Part shown: positions 57,432 to 64,000 of the stretch, piece by piece
Numbering within the stretch: the stretch's first letter is position 1
How the letters are laid out: the number at the start of each line of letters is the position of its first letter
NCBI GenBank assembly: GCA_023920165.1
Contig: CP089277.1
Coordinates: 3,286,001-3,350,000 of the forward strand
DNA from: Curvularia clavata
Lineage: Eukaryota
Length of the DNA: 64,000 nt
Direction of reading: 5' to 3'
The notes under the pieces: generated by a model
The model's input: the letters and a program-made list of their open reading frames with translations, nothing else
The model's database searches: none
What the model was told of the DNA's origin: nothing
Position numbers and translations under genes: made by a program

Positions 57432-60387
57432 GTCATTTTGTTGCTTTTAGAGCGGAGTGGGCCGGGATTTTCTCGCACTGGCCACAGGGTTGCCATGAAT
57501 ATCGGCACTGGACGGAATTATGAAGAGATGGCAGGTCATTATCAATGATAGGACAGCATGTAGCCTTAGATAGCGTAGCACTCTTATTAAGCACAGCTAC
57601 CATAAGATCTCTACTCTACCTAACCCAGCGCTCATGAGCATTAACAATCCGATCTTCCTGTTAACCTTGAATATTAAACCAAAGCACCTTTCCTCTGCTC
57701 CAATGATTATAGTTCTATATAAGAAGTCGTTCGGTATATACCTATGTGATAGCTAGTGTAAGTAGTATATGACATACCCCACAAGCTGGTAGAATAAAAT
57801 TAAATAACTGGCTTTAGAATAACATAAACGATATTAGAAAGGCTGTAAACTATTTGATTTTGTTCTTTTTTATGGCTTGTCTGCGCCGAGTGATCCATAA
57901 TATATATATCACAAAAAAGAGCAGCAAGCCGCCCTTGAGCCCACCAGAAATCGAAAAGTCAGAATAAAGGACCCTGTCCAAGACACCAATGTATATACTT
58001 ACCTTTAACAGACAAGTACAGCTAGACCCTGCATGCAGCATTCCCCTTTTCCCTACACCTGGTTCCTCGGAATCACACCCTTGGTCCTCGGAGATCACAG
58101 TAGCGCCTACTACCACTTACCCACCCACGCAGCCAACCATGCCCTTACCATGTGTACTTGCATCTCAGCGCCAAGCCCCCTCTTAACCCTTCTCCAGCCG
58201 TTCCCTCCCTTTTTTTTGCCCACTTCAGCCCAAGCCCAAGGCAGAGTCCCACATAGGATCCCTTAGTAGCCCAACCCTCTAACCGGCCAAGTACGGCGAA
58301 ATACCGCCCCCTTTGGCCCCCACATATACACCACACTATGCGCCAGACTAATTCTCCCACACGCTTGTTAGACAAATGCTCCGGCTGGCTTGGGGTTTGG
58401 CATTAGGGCGGTATGGAGGGAATCAGGAAGTCTGGGCACAAGGGGTGCATGGTGTGGTATAGATGATCACGTGTGTTTGTGTGAGAACGACGGTTCTCGT
58501 TGAGGGCTGATTTTGGTCTGGAAGGGTCTGGTGGTCTGGACGGCTGTGAGCAAGTTTTAAGCCAACTTTAATTCGACTCAACGAATATCTAAACAAACAG
58601 GGTGTTTAGAGGCTAGTTCATCTACATTGCTCCTTTGAAGACGTACGTGCATATGTACATGTTGTAGATGGGAAGCTTGGCACTTCATCGATGCGGACTA
58701 GGATACCTGTGCATGCATCGGAGTAACTTTTAGCCAGCTGACCAAAAAAAAAGGGCTTATCAGATCCTGAGGACAGGTACGCATCTATTGCGCATTTACA
58801 AGCCTAGCTGTCTTTTGCCTCCCTCCCCACGCCATACCAAGACCGCCAGAGCTTGCAGTCCCTCCCGAGTCATAGCACGCGTAGATCTTACAAACGACTT
58901 GCCGGGAATGCAACATCGACCACCGACAAAGACTCTCACGTGCGTTTATCCGACTGGCTAGTCTCTTTCTCTCTCACCATGGACGTGCGCGCTACCTTTT
59001 GCGTACGTGCGCTTGCGTGGGAGCGTGCGTAATATTTTCTGTGGCACCGTCGATGGTGGGGGACGTGCACTTTAGTAGCCGCTTGGGACAGTCAGACAGG
59101 GCAGAGAGTAGCGCTGGGACCCTGAGGGCGTGTGCGTATTGTGCGTATGTGCACGCGCGGACGAAGTGGAGTTGGGTTGCGTGGGTTTGTGCGCAGGTGT
59201 GGACAGGTGTGGACTTGTGGGCGAGAACGAATGTCCCAGGTCCCCAATAATCCCAATTGCCTAGAACAAGTCATTTGGGTAGTTGAGTGGCGTGCGCACG
59301 TGCAACTTTCTCCATATGTGTATGTAAGAAAAAAACAAGGGAATTGTAGAGACAGAGTGGCAGAATCGCTTAGCTCGCTTGCCTCGTCGTTACGAACAAC
59401 GGCCGTAACTAAAAAAGGGTACCTTACTCTGGTCCCGTGGGTAGGAGCATGGAAGAGCCTTGTAAGACGTGTAACCATGCGTGGCATGCCTCATCTCGGC
59501 ACTGGCCCTGATTAGTAGGTCGTTACCAAAAGACAAAACAGCGGTCAAGAGGAGAAACAATAGCTGTGTTCGCGTGATGAATGAGGAATCATGATGCCGA
59601 CAGAAGGAGAAGAGGACACGAGACACGAGACAGAAGATGTAAGACACGTAATGCAAATCAACCCAAAGTAGCAAAGTGTAGAGCGTGGTATTATGGAGAT
59701 CCCGTCTTGTCCACCCTGTCTCCAAAGACGACTGATTGACTGGAGAGCATCGAGTCTATGAACCATTTCTGCATCCAAAAAAGGAAAAGAAGACGTGAAT
59801 AAGCCCGCAATAGAACTGAAAACAACAATAACCAGACAGCGCATAAGCATAGACCTGTTTTGATAACTTTTTGTGACTGCGATTTGAACGCCCGTTTTTA
59901 CAAAGACCCAAAGTCTAGAAAGGATCTCGAGGAAAAAAGAGAGGGCCCAGGGGATATAATTCCGCATAAAACAAACAACAAGGAAAAGGCGTCTCGTGTA
60001 CTCTGCAATATACATCAAGTCGTTATGCCGTGCACTGGGTGCTGGCAAAAGAAGATGGACATTGTGAGAGTAGAAACGTATGCTCATAAGTCGAAACATG
60101 GGTACCGGCCGACAAACAGTTGTATCCAAGCATCAAGGCTGGCTAACTTGGTAGAAGATGAGTGTGGATTCTCCCGATCCGAGGAACTCCAGGAGATGCA
60201 GAGGACGAAGAGGTGAACCAGTCGTGACCTTTTCGTCTTATGGATGAAAGAAAACGGATATAGGCCAAGGCTGCAAATTCTTTGGCGCACATTTTAAACG
60301 TCGGGGTATTATGAGAAGCAAACAACTGGCCAGATGCTTCGAAAAGCGACCCGGACATGGCAAAGTGAAAAAGGCATATATATGTAG

Positions 60388-62258
60388 TTAGAACATGGAA
60401 GGATCAATGCCGCCCATTCCAGCGCCTGCGACATTGGCATTCTGCAGGTTCTGGAGATTGCCAGTGAGGCCAAGCTTCTGCATGGCCAGCTCGGGATTGC
60501 AGTGGGGAGCATGAGAGCGGTGGTATTTGAGACCATTCAAGTTCTTGTACCGCTTGCCACAGACCTCACAGCGATATGGCTTTTCCTTCTCCATTCCGAC
60601 GGTGCCGGGGTATGGGATGGACGTAAGAGGATCGACAATGGAAAAGGTACCGTCGTCGTTCTCCTTGAGCTGCTGGTTCTGATGACCATGCTGCTTGTGG
60701 TACTTGAGGCCGTTTTGGTTCTTGTATGCCTTTTCGCATCCAATGACTGGGCATCTGAATGGCTTGACCTCCTCTGGGAAGGGGAATTGTGGGATGCTTG
60801 CGCCGTTGAGGAGCTGCTGCTCGCGTAACCGCCTGGCCATTTCGCTCTGGTCGTTTCCGCTGAGCTGGTAGTTCTTGAGGGCTGCTTGCAGCTGTGCCTG
60901 GTTGAGGCCACCGCCCTGCTTGCTGAACAGACGCTTGCCTGGCTGGTCAATGGTGCCGTTGTTGTCGAAAGCAGCCATGCCAAAGTTGCCATTGCCGTTG
61001 CCGTTGCCAAAGTTCATGCCCATGGGCATGCCCATATCCATTCCCATCATTGGGTTGAAGCCTCCAAAGTCCATGTCGAGCTCGGCTGGTGTGCCGGGGT
61101 GCGAGGATTCTGGCGAGGTCAGGTTGTGGTTGGCCATGGGCATGGTGCCCATGGTGGGCGTGTTGACCGACGACACGGTGGGGTTGTTCTGGAGGTTGAA
61201 CTGCTGCGAAGCTGAGGGCGTGTTGGGCGTCGATGTGCGCATGCCTTGGTGGTTCTGCATGTTATTTGCCATGTTCACGTTGACATTGAGATTTGACTGC
61301 TGGTTCTGATTCTGGTTAGGGTTGAACTGATTTTGAACTGGGAACTGCTGCATCGACTGCTGCTGTTGCGGTTGCTGTTGCTGCTCGTCGATAGAGCCCA
61401 GGTTGTCAAAATTGATGTCATCCATGTCCATGTCGTCTAGCGAGTCGATGTCTTGCACAGTCGACAGGTTGGAGCGGCTCACAGAGCCTATCCGCGGACG
61501 GTGCGCGCCCATGGAGCCGGATCTTTGCTGGAAGCCATTCTGGGCATTGAAAGCGTGGTCACCCTGGGTCTGGCTGGGCGCAATGGAGCTGGTTGGCGCA
61601 CCCGATGCAGAGGTGAAGCCGTTTGTTGGAGGCTGTTGGGGGCGGGCGGCGGGCGCGTTTGCGTGCGTCTCCTCAAAATGCTGGAGCAAGTCGTGCAGCG
61701 AGGCGAGGGTCAGGCCGCAGCAAGTGAAATCCTTCATAAAAGCAGCCTCCATTTTTGGCAGATATGACGAAGAGTGGAACGAGGGCGAGTTGTTGGCAAA
61801 AGGAGCAGGCGAAGTGCCCATCATGATGCTGGTGAAAGTGTTAGTGGTGTGTGCGTGCGTGCGTGCGTGTGTGTGTGGCGGGCCGAAAGCGGTGGGAACA
61901 CTTACTCGTCGCGGATCCAGGAGCCCACCGAGTGGCCGCCCCAGCTCATGCCGCCTGCAAAGCTGCCCATATTTGTGCTCTCGCGACGCCCACGGTCCTT
62001 CATGGAGATGGGCCTGGCGCCGCTGTTGCCGTAAAAGGACGAGCCGAGCATGCTGATGGAGGGGTGGCGCTCGCTGATGCTGGGACGGCCATGTGTGAAA
62101 TCAAAGTTTGTCGGGTTGAGCAGGCCGGGCGTGGTGGCCAGGTCTGGCTGGGCCTCTGCCTGCTTGAGGGCCGACGTCAGGTTGGACGTCTGGTTGGGGG
62201 GAGAATTGGAACCATAGCGCGGGGGCGTCTGGATGTCGATGGGCGAGGCGGTTGCCAT
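60388..62258 (-). CDS. SFP1: Split C2H2 zinc-finger transcription factor Sfp1; 2 exons. First AUG at 62258; may start upstream at CUG 62537.
   Basis: MSWGGHSVGSWIRD-DIMM (intron 61829-61905), SYLPKMEAAFMKDFTCCG...LHDLLQHFEETH, KPFRCPVIGCEKAYKNQNGLKYH and EKPYRCEVCGKRYKNLNGLKYH. Confidence 0.93.
61846..61877 (+). repeat. Compound (GCGT)n/(GT)n microsatellite inside the SFP1 intron
   Basis: GGTGTGTGCGTGCGTGCGTGCGTGTGTGTGTG. Confidence 0.8.
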
Positions 62259-63230
62259 GTCTGCGAAGCCGGTGTGGACCTGCGTGTCTTGGGGGAACAG
62301 CGAGAAGCTGCAGTCGCCCGCGTCCTCGAACAGCACGTCCGAGTCGGGCTGGCGGCTAGCTGCAAGCTCGTGGGGCTTGCGGTGCCAGAGATTGACGAGG
62401 GAGGCGGCCGAGTCGTTTGTGGCACGACCAAAGTGTGGCGACGAGGGGTGGTCGACCGGGGTGGTGATGGGGGTGCTCGCAGCGGTGGATTCGCGCGGCG
62501 AGTGGGTGAGGGGAGGCGGATGCTCGTAGGAATCCAGCTTCGCGGTGGGCGAAGTCAATGGAAGGTAAGCAGTGGGGGGGGACAGGCGAGGCGTTTGGGC
62601 GCGGTCCCGGATGACTGTGCGGCGTGGGTGGGTGTGGCGTGTTGCAGCAGCGGTGGAGCGTGCGAGGGTGGAGTGTATAGTAGTGTGTAGTGATTTGAGT
62701 GCTGGTGCTGGGCACAGGAGCAGAAGGATGCAATGCAAGCAGCAACAGAGATGCGCCGGCAATGGTTGTGTCTGTGTATAAAAAAAATATATACCGATGG
62801 GCGTGGGAACAGCCGGGGCCTTGGGGGGGCTATATGTTGGCGTGGAAGCGGTGACGAGGTTAGAATGGACAAGCGGCCGACTGCTGGGCGGGCCTGGAGG
62901 ATCCCTGGCGATGGGTGGGTGGGTGCGGCCAATTGCGGGCTGGCGCTACTGTAGCCTGTATGCGTCGCCGGCAGTAAAGGTGCAACTCTGACGAAGAGTG
63001 CATGACGAAATGAGCGGCGACACAGCAGCCCCAGCGGCCAAGCCTCGACAGGGCCTGGTGGACGAGCGACAGGCACCGCGCCCGTTGCGGATGAAGCGAT
63101 GCTGTGGCGCGGAGTGGCAGCGAGCAGGGCATGCCGTGTGGGAGAGGAGGGTATGGCGGCACCGCCGGCCGAGGCACAATTGTCGTCGACACTACCACGA
63201 TCCATTGAACGAGCACATGCACGGCCACAC

Positions 63231-63318
63231 GGCTGGTTGGATGGTTGCTTGGGTGGTTGACTGGCCGGCTGGCTGGGCGGCTGCTTGGTTGGCTGGCTGG
63301 CGGGCTGGCGGGCGGGCT
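63231..63318 (+). repeat. Degenerate (GGCT/GGTT/GGCG)n tetranucleotide tract upstream of SFP1
   Basis: GGCTGGTTGGATGGTT...GGCTGGCTGGCGGGCTGGCGGGCGGGCT. Confidence 0.65.
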
Positions 63319-64000
63319 CTTGGGACGCGCCCCAGCTAGAGCCGGAGCTGCTCAGCGCTGCGGTTTGCCATTGCCCTCAGCAGGCCATCCTTGCCTCTGC
63401 GCTCGTCTCGATTTTCTAGAAGGCCTGTATGGCAACTCCCGTCGAGTCGCTGTCAAGTGTCGGTGTCGGTGCGTGGGTGTCTCGCTCGCTCGGTGCTTCG
63501 GGCCCTCGATGCCTCTCCTCCACGTGGCGCAGAGCCATATCCGAGGAAATTCCGCCCGCGCCATGCTGGCTCTGGCTGCTACCGTCGTACTCGACAATAG
63601 GACGGGCAAAGAATAGGTACTGACTGGTACCTCGCACAAGGCTGCCCTGCGAACCGCCGCTGACGCTGACGCTGACGGCCTCTGCATGTGCTGTCGGACT
63701 AGGCCGCAAACCGCCAGCCGCCCTGGCCGCGTCCAAGAGAGGGGTAGTCCAAGTAGACAGCGCTTCACGCTGCGAGCAAGACGTTTCAACACGAGTGGCA
63801 TAGTAGGAGCGAGCCATGAGCCAGTCTCGCGGCCAGGTCGGCGCGTTGCATCTGCCCGGCCTCGTCTCGGCTGTTTGCCCCTCTTGGGTCTGCTCTTACA
63901 CAACCACGACGACTAACACCAACACGGCCCTTTCACGTGAGACGCCGCCGCCACTCTGCTGAGCCTACCACTGCTTACTACCTACCACTACCACGGCTGC

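Follow-up and report, generated by a model that had tools for sequence, protein, structure and literature searches.

A conserved CUG codon probably starts a long form of the ribosome-biogenesis regulator Sfp1 in Curvularia clavata and related fungi

Near-cognate start codons extend the N-termini of some fungal proteins. In Neurospora crassa and other Pezizomycotina, cpc-1 (CPC1) carries N-terminal extensions that are initiated at near-cognate codons (Ivanov et al. 2017, mBio, PMC5487733). Alternative N-termini of the "DualNCC" and "DualAUG" kinds have been described in fungi, in which weak AUGs and near-cognates replaced each other several times (Wallace et al. 2020, Nucleic Acids Research, PMC7049704). 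Both papers discuss the use of non-AUG starts in fungi. Here we describe a comparable locus on a 64,000-nucleotide (nt) stretch of Curvularia clavata DNA (contig CP089277.1, positions 3,286,001 to 3,350,000; hereafter the window, numbered from its first letter). Its minus strand carries an orthologue of SFP1, whose first AUG, at 62258, follows a long leader devoid of AUGs. We propose that a conserved in-frame CUG at 62537 within this leader starts a long form of Sfp1 with 93 extra N-terminal residues, a reading to which we assign a probability of about 0.82.

The SFP1 locus resembles cpc-1 in several respects. According to PMC5487733, cpc-1 is likewise a filamentous-ascomycete transcription factor gene with a conserved in-frame extension 5' of the annotated AUG. 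Its conserved near-cognates, one of which is a CUG, have A at -3 and G at +4, the main frame is under purifying selection, and database annotations disagree on the start. There are also differences. By the same account, cpc-1 has two AUG upstream open reading frames (ORFs) and several conserved near-cognates, whereas SFP1 has no upstream AUG over 745 nt and one universally conserved CUG. The cpc-1 extensions are backed by in vitro translation, reporters and ribosome profiling (PMC5487733), whereas the SFP1 case is known from sequence and RNA contigs. Sfp1 is not mentioned in the main text of that paper, the supplements of which could list further genes.

DualNCC and DualAUG genes provide the second parallel. 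According to PMC7049704, these genes have a leaky first start, either a weak AUG or a near-cognate, followed by an in-frame strong AUG, as SFP1 would have. The exchange of AUGs and near-cognates reported there is also the pattern seen here between Eurotiomycetes (AUG) and Dothideomycetes and Lecanoromycetes (putative CUG). The published cases are mostly aminoacyl-tRNA synthetases with a mitochondrial targeting signal (PMC7049704). The Sfp1 extension is different: it is Ser/Thr-Pro-rich, predicted to be disordered, part of a nuclear regulator and without a known targeting signal. Our literature searches found no publication on a non-AUG or near-cognate start of Sfp1. Thus, a CUG start of Sfp1 would add to the known near-cognate extensions of fungal genes, and the Sfp1 case itself appears to be new.

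The gene belongs to the Sfp1 family. In Saccharomyces cerevisiae, Sfp1 has a split zinc finger and, controlled by TORC1/PKA, regulates the genes for ribosomal proteins and ribosome biogenesis; we know of no non-AUG start in the yeast gene. The window's orthologue shares with it the names that sources give to its homologues and the C-terminal C2H2 fingers. A protein search returned 76 homologues, several of them named "transcription factor SFP1" or "Transcriptional regulator of ribosomal biogenesis proteins" and others "C2H2 transcription factor"; all of these labels are those of the sources. A model from Stemphylium lycopersici ranks first, with 88% identity across the 210 query residues, and Alternaria comes next (84%), which places the source among the Pleosporales (Dothideomycetes). 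Homology to SFP1-annotated proteins extends over the full length. The zinc-finger matches of the orthologues are weak, with zf-C2H2 at 22.7 bits against a Pfam cut-off of 25.2 and zf-C2H2_aberr at 21.8 against 27.

SFP1 has two exons, which together span 60388-62537 on the minus strand when counted from the CTG. Its features are given below from 5' to 3'; X1 and X5 are two of the four RNA runs described further on.

62843..63002, minus strand: upstream rest of the ATG-free run, included in at least a minor or longer form of the mRNA.
62547..62842, minus strand: minimum 5' leader beyond the CUG context; ATG-free, no protein-type conservation, X1 contig colinear to 62842.
62774..62794, minus strand: T/A-rich, TATA-like tract, inside the X1 and X5 contigs.
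62538..62546, minus strand: start context ACC GCG AAG, with A at -3; 5' edge of cross-species conservation.
62535..62537, minus strand: conserved CUG (CTG), proposed start codon of the long isoform, in frame and 93 codons 5' of the ATG.
62259..62534, minus strand: N-terminal extension, codons 2-93, Ser/Thr-Pro-rich, predicted disordered.
62256..62258, minus strand: first AUG, putative short-isoform start, in the strong context GAC ATG G.
61906..62258, minus strand: exon 1 from the first ATG, the part after the AUG being 61906..62255; from translation, with its end fixed by the RNA joint.
61829..61905, minus strand: intron, 77 nt, GT..AG; joint in 4/4 runs.
60388..61828, minus strand: exon 2, which encodes the C2H2 zinc fingers of the C-terminus and ends in the stop codon (60388-60390); from translation and the ORF list.

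The SFP1 leader lies in the longest ATG-free gap of the window. The nearest minus-strand ATG 5' of 62258, in any frame, is at 63003, which leaves an ATG-free run of 745 nt. No other gap on either strand is as long, the runners-up being 528 nt (minus) and 502 nt (plus), and a first-order Markov estimate from the stretch itself predicts 5.7 ATGs in such a run. ATG-free spans of 723-1005 nt surround the same CTG in all nine sequences that have both bounds (the window and eight related loci), where 4.1-8.5 ATGs would be expected. Because the absence recurs in these nine sequences, the ATG desert is not due to chance. Between stops, the Sfp1 frame stays open from 62945 as far as the intron; an in-frame stop at 62948 bounds it upstream of the CTG, and its upstream part has no ATG. 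A first-pass annotation of this stretch had reported that no minus-strand ATG lies between 62258 and 63000 and that the frame stays open to at least 62762. Both statements hold, the actual limits being 63003 and 62945, and the Ser/Thr-Pro-rich peptide that it quoted is the frame's actual translation.

The CTG stands out among the near-cognate codons of the leader. It occupies 62537-62535, in frame and 279 nt (93 codons) 5' of the ATG, and its context is, as the same annotation had it, ACC GCG AAG CTG G, with A at -3 and G at +4. No other in-frame near-cognate within the window's transcribed leader combines a purine at -3 with G at +4. The others in the well-supported transcript (AAG 62540, TTG 62558, CTG 62585, ACG 62594 and ATC 62612) are all in poor context. 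AGG 62906 and ATT 62933 have both favourable positions, but lie 5' of the end of the X1 contig.

The CTG and its context are conserved in related DNA. Searching metagenome contigs with aligned extension sequences yielded 17 loci, 15 of which hold the start region. Together with the window, 11 loci make up the 12 distinct sequences compared; as these sequences are related, the counts drawn from them are not independent. CTG is present at the site in 15/15 loci, preceded by AAG or AAA and followed by GAT, and all 12 distinct sequences have A at -3 and G at +4. In 13 of 14 loci the frame is closed by a stop 51-297 nt 5' of the CTG and contains no ATG between the two; in the fourteenth, the upstream sequence is just 136 nt long. 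In L004 and L008 the stop lies 51-54 nt upstream. Thus, in the window and in these 13 loci, no in-frame AUG stands between the annotated AUG and the next upstream stop. In an alignment of 11 sequences, conservation ends sharply about 9 nt 5' of the CTG, at the 9-mer ACC-GYG-AAG. The 5' edge of conservation is thereby occupied by a near-cognate codon in good context, and the sequences further 5' are unalignable except for one short leader motif.

Two codons next to the CTG were considered as starts in their own right. The codon two places 5' (-6) is GTG in most relatives and GCG, GTT or TCC in several, with GCG in the window. GTG at -6 is ruled out as a universal start by this variation, but may serve as a start in the species that carry it. 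AAG at -3 is ruled out as well: it is replaced by AAA in L009, L010, L013 and L014, and its context in the window is poor.

The short leader motif, GCACAGTCATCYG, is at 62607-62620 of the window (minus strand) and is conserved in leaders that otherwise cannot be aligned. Its counterparts lie about 80-130 nt 5' of the CTG in L001, L003, L004, L005, L007 and L009, and in several relatives a second block, GAGTCGCCATCCCAC, follows it. The motif could mark a transcription-start or initiator region, or a leader element.

The extension carries the signature of a coding sequence. It is 93-100 codons long, every sequence is in frame with the AUG, and all length changes preserve the frame. Over the extension, the median rates of nonsynonymous (dN) and synonymous (dS) substitution are 0.30 and 0.64, and the median dN/dS is 0.40 (Nei-Gojobori, 66 pairs); the corresponding median dN/dS for the 114 codons that follow the AUG is 0.24 (46 usable pairs). 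Among 88 ungapped codons, variable sites at codon positions 1, 2 and 3 number 49, 36 and 71. Both purifying selection and in-frame indels are thus observed: the extension behaves as protein-coding sequence, less constrained than the core. It is the outcome that the first-pass annotation had anticipated for 62537-62259, namely dN/dS below 1 with neither stops nor frameshifts.

The extension has conserved motifs and is most likely a disordered region. The motifs are ETPPPL, RESTAASTP (RESTA-x-TP-x-x-TP), W-H-R-K-P, LLFEDAGDCSFPLFP and the acidic-hydrophobic LLFED-x-GDCSFPLFP. No Pfam family matched the extension. AlphaFold2, run with an 11-sequence alignment, gave a low-confidence coil with a mean predicted local distance difference test (pLDDT) score of 59.8, a predicted template modelling (pTM) score of 0.12 and no helix or strand of listed length. 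Searched as a profile against 1.84 billion representatives, the extension matched only 36 clusters at 50% identity, which indicates that the module is narrowly distributed. As to its function, one may guess at phospho-regulation of the Ser/Thr-Pro sites, or at an activation or interaction motif.

Eurotiomycete orthologues begin the same domain with an AUG. We classified 125 stored proteins with the PPPL landmark, alongside a cross-class alignment search (best 120 of 156 matches listed), and the homologous domain is present in 112 of the classified proteins. In 77 of these, no Met stands at the site; they read x-K-L-[D/A/E], diverge completely upstream and, where named, come from Dothideomycetes and Lecanoromycetes. 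The residue before L is K in 72 of them, T in 3, G in 1 and S in 1. The other 35 have a Met at the K position of "KLD", which is the first residue of the model in 27; where named, they come from the Eurotiomycete orders Onygenales, Eurotiales and Chaetothyriales, except for one labelled Elasticomyces. Thirteen proteins were left over: four with mis-placed landmarks and VKLD, one that starts LDS, one with N-L-G, two that start downstream and five that splice in below the site. Taxonomy was spot-checked for six named species; the remaining class and order assignments are those we take these species to have. All named full-length matches listed in two word-indexed searches are from Dothideomycetes, Eurotiomycetes or Lecanoromycetes. 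No Sordariomycete or Leotiomycete with the extension is among the named matches listed, in searches that were word-limited and gave best matches only.

The residue after the start appears to be constrained only where it would itself be the start. MAFFT pairs the Eurotiomycete Met with the Pleosporales Lys, and the two codons, ATG and AAG, are one base apart. The AUG that starts the domain in Eurotiomycetes thus lies immediately 5' of the CTG position, at a codon that is AAG or AAA in Dothideomycetes and Lecanoromycetes. In the 35 proteins with Met, the next residue is F in 12, L in 9, P in 8, R in 4, I in 1 and Q in 1. In the 77 without Met, the L and the D/A/E column are fixed, partly because both are built into the search pattern. 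The independent test of the L position comes from the DNA loci and the 13 leftovers, none of which has another residue there. These comparisons suggest that Leu is free to vary where the AUG is present and fixed where it is absent. Among prokaryote-style gene calls, seven begin "MKLDS" and four "VKLDS".

One protein departs from the taxonomic pattern. P0075, from a cluster named Elasticomyces elasticus (by its label a Dothideomycete of the Mycosphaerellales), has the AUG-started N-terminus typical of Chaetothyriales. It may represent a mislabelled or contaminated assembly, or a real exception.

RNA contigs place the CUG within the mature mRNA. We aligned assembled contigs of four runs, from four studies and three coded organisms, to positions 60000-64000. 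The records label the runs "RNA?"; since all four have a joint that skips exactly 61829-61905 (77 nt, GT..AG, minus strand), we take them to be spliced RNA. In each run, contigs are colinear from exon 1 through the CTG, and they reach upstream to 62774 (X11, with cover split into 62217-62581 and 62619-62774), 62802 (X8), 62842 (X1) and 63114 (X5). The transcript therefore does not begin downstream of 62537, and the colinear contigs, whose lone joint is 61829-61905, contain no upstream AUG exon spliced in at about 62538. An AUG exon joined at AAG|CTG is accordingly ruled out by 4/4 runs. No further joint was found in the contigs of any run, which drop rare splice forms. Upstream of 63114-63645, the window has no contig cover and the runs are uninformative. 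A relative contig, L008, is spliced and cDNA-like and has the same layout, with a 591-residue ORF from the main ATG and an in-frame stop 54 nt before the CTG.

In X1, contig depth falls towards the 5' end of the leader. The X1 contig that ends at 62842 has a depth of 139 (138.8) and the X5 contig a depth of 193. A second X1 contig, over 62827-63127, has a depth of 6.9, a drop of about 20-fold beyond 62842; the longer transcript that reaches 63114 may thus be minor. The first-pass annotation had noted a TATA-like tract near 62785-62793. A T/A-rich stretch is indeed present (62794-62774), but it is at most a candidate TATA box: the contigs of X1 and X5 extend past it, which places the tract inside at least some transcripts, and a promoter role is unproven. 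ATG 63003 opens a 47-codon ORF that ends at 62860, out of frame with Sfp1; only on the longer transcript, as in run X5, would it count as an upstream ORF.

Frame-breaking differences between the window and the RNA runs occur only 5' of the CTG. X1 and X5 share two differences: one letter is missing at 62574, within a stretch of eight C, and two are inserted at 62623. All indels of a length that is not a multiple of three lie upstream of the CTG, and none is found in the 279 nt below it. Non-coding sequence 5' of the CTG would be expected to carry such indels. In X8, nine letters are inserted at 62573. The eight-C run itself (62574-62581, minus strand) is variable in length between the window and the RNA runs.

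The interval between the two starts seems to be kept clear of AUGs. From CTG to AUG, there are 0 ATGs in any frame in 12/12 sequences, while codon shuffles lead one to expect 9.4 out-of-frame ATGs in total. The stretch of equal length after the AUG has 60 in the 12 sequences, 26 of them out of frame and 34 Met codons. The extension is also free of Met in 72 of 73 proteins without a Met start and in 35/35 with one; like the ATG counts, these come from related sequences and are not independent. In 12/12 sequences, a purine at -3 and a G at +4 flank the main AUG, so that a strong second AUG follows the CUG with no intervening AUG in any frame. Selection for unobstructed scanning from cap to CUG to AUG would produce this pattern. 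We consider it likely, from this indirect evidence, that both isoforms are produced by leaky CUG/AUG initiation, as the first-pass annotation had suggested.

These observations can be joined in a simple scanning model. Ribosomes that scan the long, AUG-free leader of the SFP1 mRNA would first meet CUG 62537, the context of which is optimal (A at -3, G at +4). A fraction would start there and make long Sfp1, with a disordered, Ser/Thr-Pro-rich N-terminal extension of 93 residues. The remaining ribosomes would scan 279 AUG-free nt to the strong AUG at 62258 and make the short form. In Eurotiomycetes the domain is started by its AUG, and in Dothideomycetes and Lecanoromycetes the CUG would serve instead. 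On the comparative and RNA evidence, we hold that the extension is very probably translated, and initiation at CUG 62537 is likely. The earlier proposal of a CUG-initiated 93-residue extension in an AUG-free leader is in line with the frame, the CTG and the -3 and +4 positions kept in orthologues, which have neither stops nor frame-breaking indels here, and with the colinear RNA.

Several points weigh against a CUG start. Most relatives have a GTG 6 nt upstream that the window lacks; in those species it could act as the start, or as an additional one. Among the Leu codons of these sequences CTG is the most frequent (43%), and another Leu column is CTC in 12/12 sequences. Among 52 invariant columns of four- or six-fold degenerate residues, 7 have a single codon in all 12 sequences; among the six invariant Leu columns, two do, this CTG and the CTC. 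The invariance of the codon is thus unusual, not unique. Because of the high share of CTG among Leu codons, the second fixed Leu column and the relatedness of the sequences, it amounts on its own to modest evidence, and the Leu column in the 77 database proteins carries the bias of the search pattern. An RNA hairpin that aids CUG recognition is unsupported: the consensus fold has 0 compensatory pairs, and a single-sequence fold downstream of the CUG has a z-score of -1.2, with 24 of 200 shuffles folding at least as well. Constraint on the extension is weaker than on exon 1 (dN/dS 0.40 against 0.24). Contigs cannot show 5' ends, and the RNA nature of the runs rests on the joint. As the X5 contig extends to 63114, some transcripts may carry ATG 63003 with its 47-codon upstream ORF. 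Finally, the support for translation is comparative and from RNA contigs.

Could AUG 62258 be the only start in use, with an upstream sequence that is an untranslated leader conserved as an RNA or DNA element, or a decaying relic? Many database models (573-604 residues) do start at this AUG, and a plain long 5' untranslated region selected against upstream ORFs could also be AUG-free. A relic would gather stops and frameshifts, however, whereas 12 sequences keep an unbroken frame of 93-100 codons, and in 73 proteins of the Dothideomycete/Lecanoromycete type the CTG position and the internal Met are 86-122 residues apart. The third-position bias of the variation and the dN/dS of 0.40 speak for protein rather than for an RNA element, as does the failure to find conserved structure (0 covarying pairs, z = -1.2), and in Eurotiomycetes the same domain is an AUG-started part of the protein. 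We regard an untranslated leader as very improbable. It is also quite unlikely that the extension is translated from elsewhere, either from another upstream near-cognate or from the AUG of a rare alternative transcript or splice form. The frame is open to 62945 and offers in-frame near-cognates such as TTG 62558, ACG 62594 and ATC 62612, GTG is found at -6 in most relatives, and rare splice forms are dropped by contigs. But the upstream in-frame near-cognates in the transcribed leader are all in poor context and none is conserved, the stops 51-54 nt upstream in L004 and L008 leave little room, and the 1-nt and 2-nt indels of the RNA runs, both upstream of 62573, are of a kind seen in non-coding sequence. 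A second joint is absent in 4/4 runs.

The last alternative accepts the CUG and denies the short form: only the long, CUG-started protein would matter, and AUG 62258 would be an internal methionine that gives no functional isoform. Conservation of the extension across three classes fits this view, as does the Eurotiomycete extension, which begins with an AUG that would normally capture most ribosomes. Yet CUG initiation is generally leaky, the next AUG is strong in 12/12 sequences, and the lack of ATG and Met in the interval (0, as opposed to 60 in the control stretch) would be difficult to account for if ribosomes did not have to reach that AUG. An irrelevant short form is for these reasons unlikely. 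Thus, a CUG-started long form, probably made alongside the AUG-started one, remains our preferred reading.

The choice between CUG and AUG might also be regulated, which we regard as a doubtful extension of that reading. Under such a switch, the share of CUG starts on SFP1 mRNA would follow start-codon stringency (the eIF1/eIF5 balance, eIF2 availability and nutrient signalling), and the disordered module of the long form, with its Ser/Thr-Pro sites and LLFEDxGDCSFPLFP, would be phospho-regulated and would alter the activity, stability or location of Sfp1. In this way, the master regulator of ribosome production would itself be tuned by the machinery of translation. Because the extension of Eurotiomycetes is also Met-free in 35/35 proteins, they would use a leaky AUG in the same way. 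A feedback of the isoform ratio on ribosome biogenesis is speculation, as is TORC1 responsiveness of Sfp1 in this fungus, which is drawn by analogy.

The locus would provide a clean natural experiment. The domain appears to be AUG-started in one class and CUG-started in two, with the residue after the start constrained only where it would be the start codon itself. It would be a good system in which to study the exchange of near-cognates and AUGs and the response of isoform ratios to initiation stringency. Sfp1 is a central growth regulator. If much of it is initiated at a CUG, Sfp1 that is studied, deleted or tagged from current models in Dothideomycetes and lichen-forming fungi would be incomplete or wrong.

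Public SFP1 models in Dothideomycetes and Lecanoromycetes have unreliable N-termini. The database orthologue models P0003-P0038 agree only from the KLDS block onward. Their lengths, as listed, range from 382 to 921 residues, with full-length models from about 570. Starts are placed at unrelated upstream ATG exons (e.g., models of 813, 921 and 893 residues), at predicted splice sites or at an internal AUG. P0007 splices into the middle of the extension, and the short models of 573-604 residues begin at the AUG equivalent to 62258. This disagreement points to systematic mis-annotation of orthologue N-termini, caused by the missing AUG.

The model of a relative, P0020 (463 residues, from NCBI, without a name), uses a different frame for the stretch just 5' of the extension, where "PPRSWIPT" is common to it and the window's out-of-frame ORF 62177-62554. 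Over residues 262-356, P0020 matches the extension profile in frame. P0020 looks like another annotation artefact at this locus. Further downstream, the 77-nt intron at 61829-61905 carries a CA/CG-rich simple repeat, cacacacacgcacgcacgcacgcacacacc, of which 61840-61886 was flagged as repeat and skipped when the contigs were aligned.

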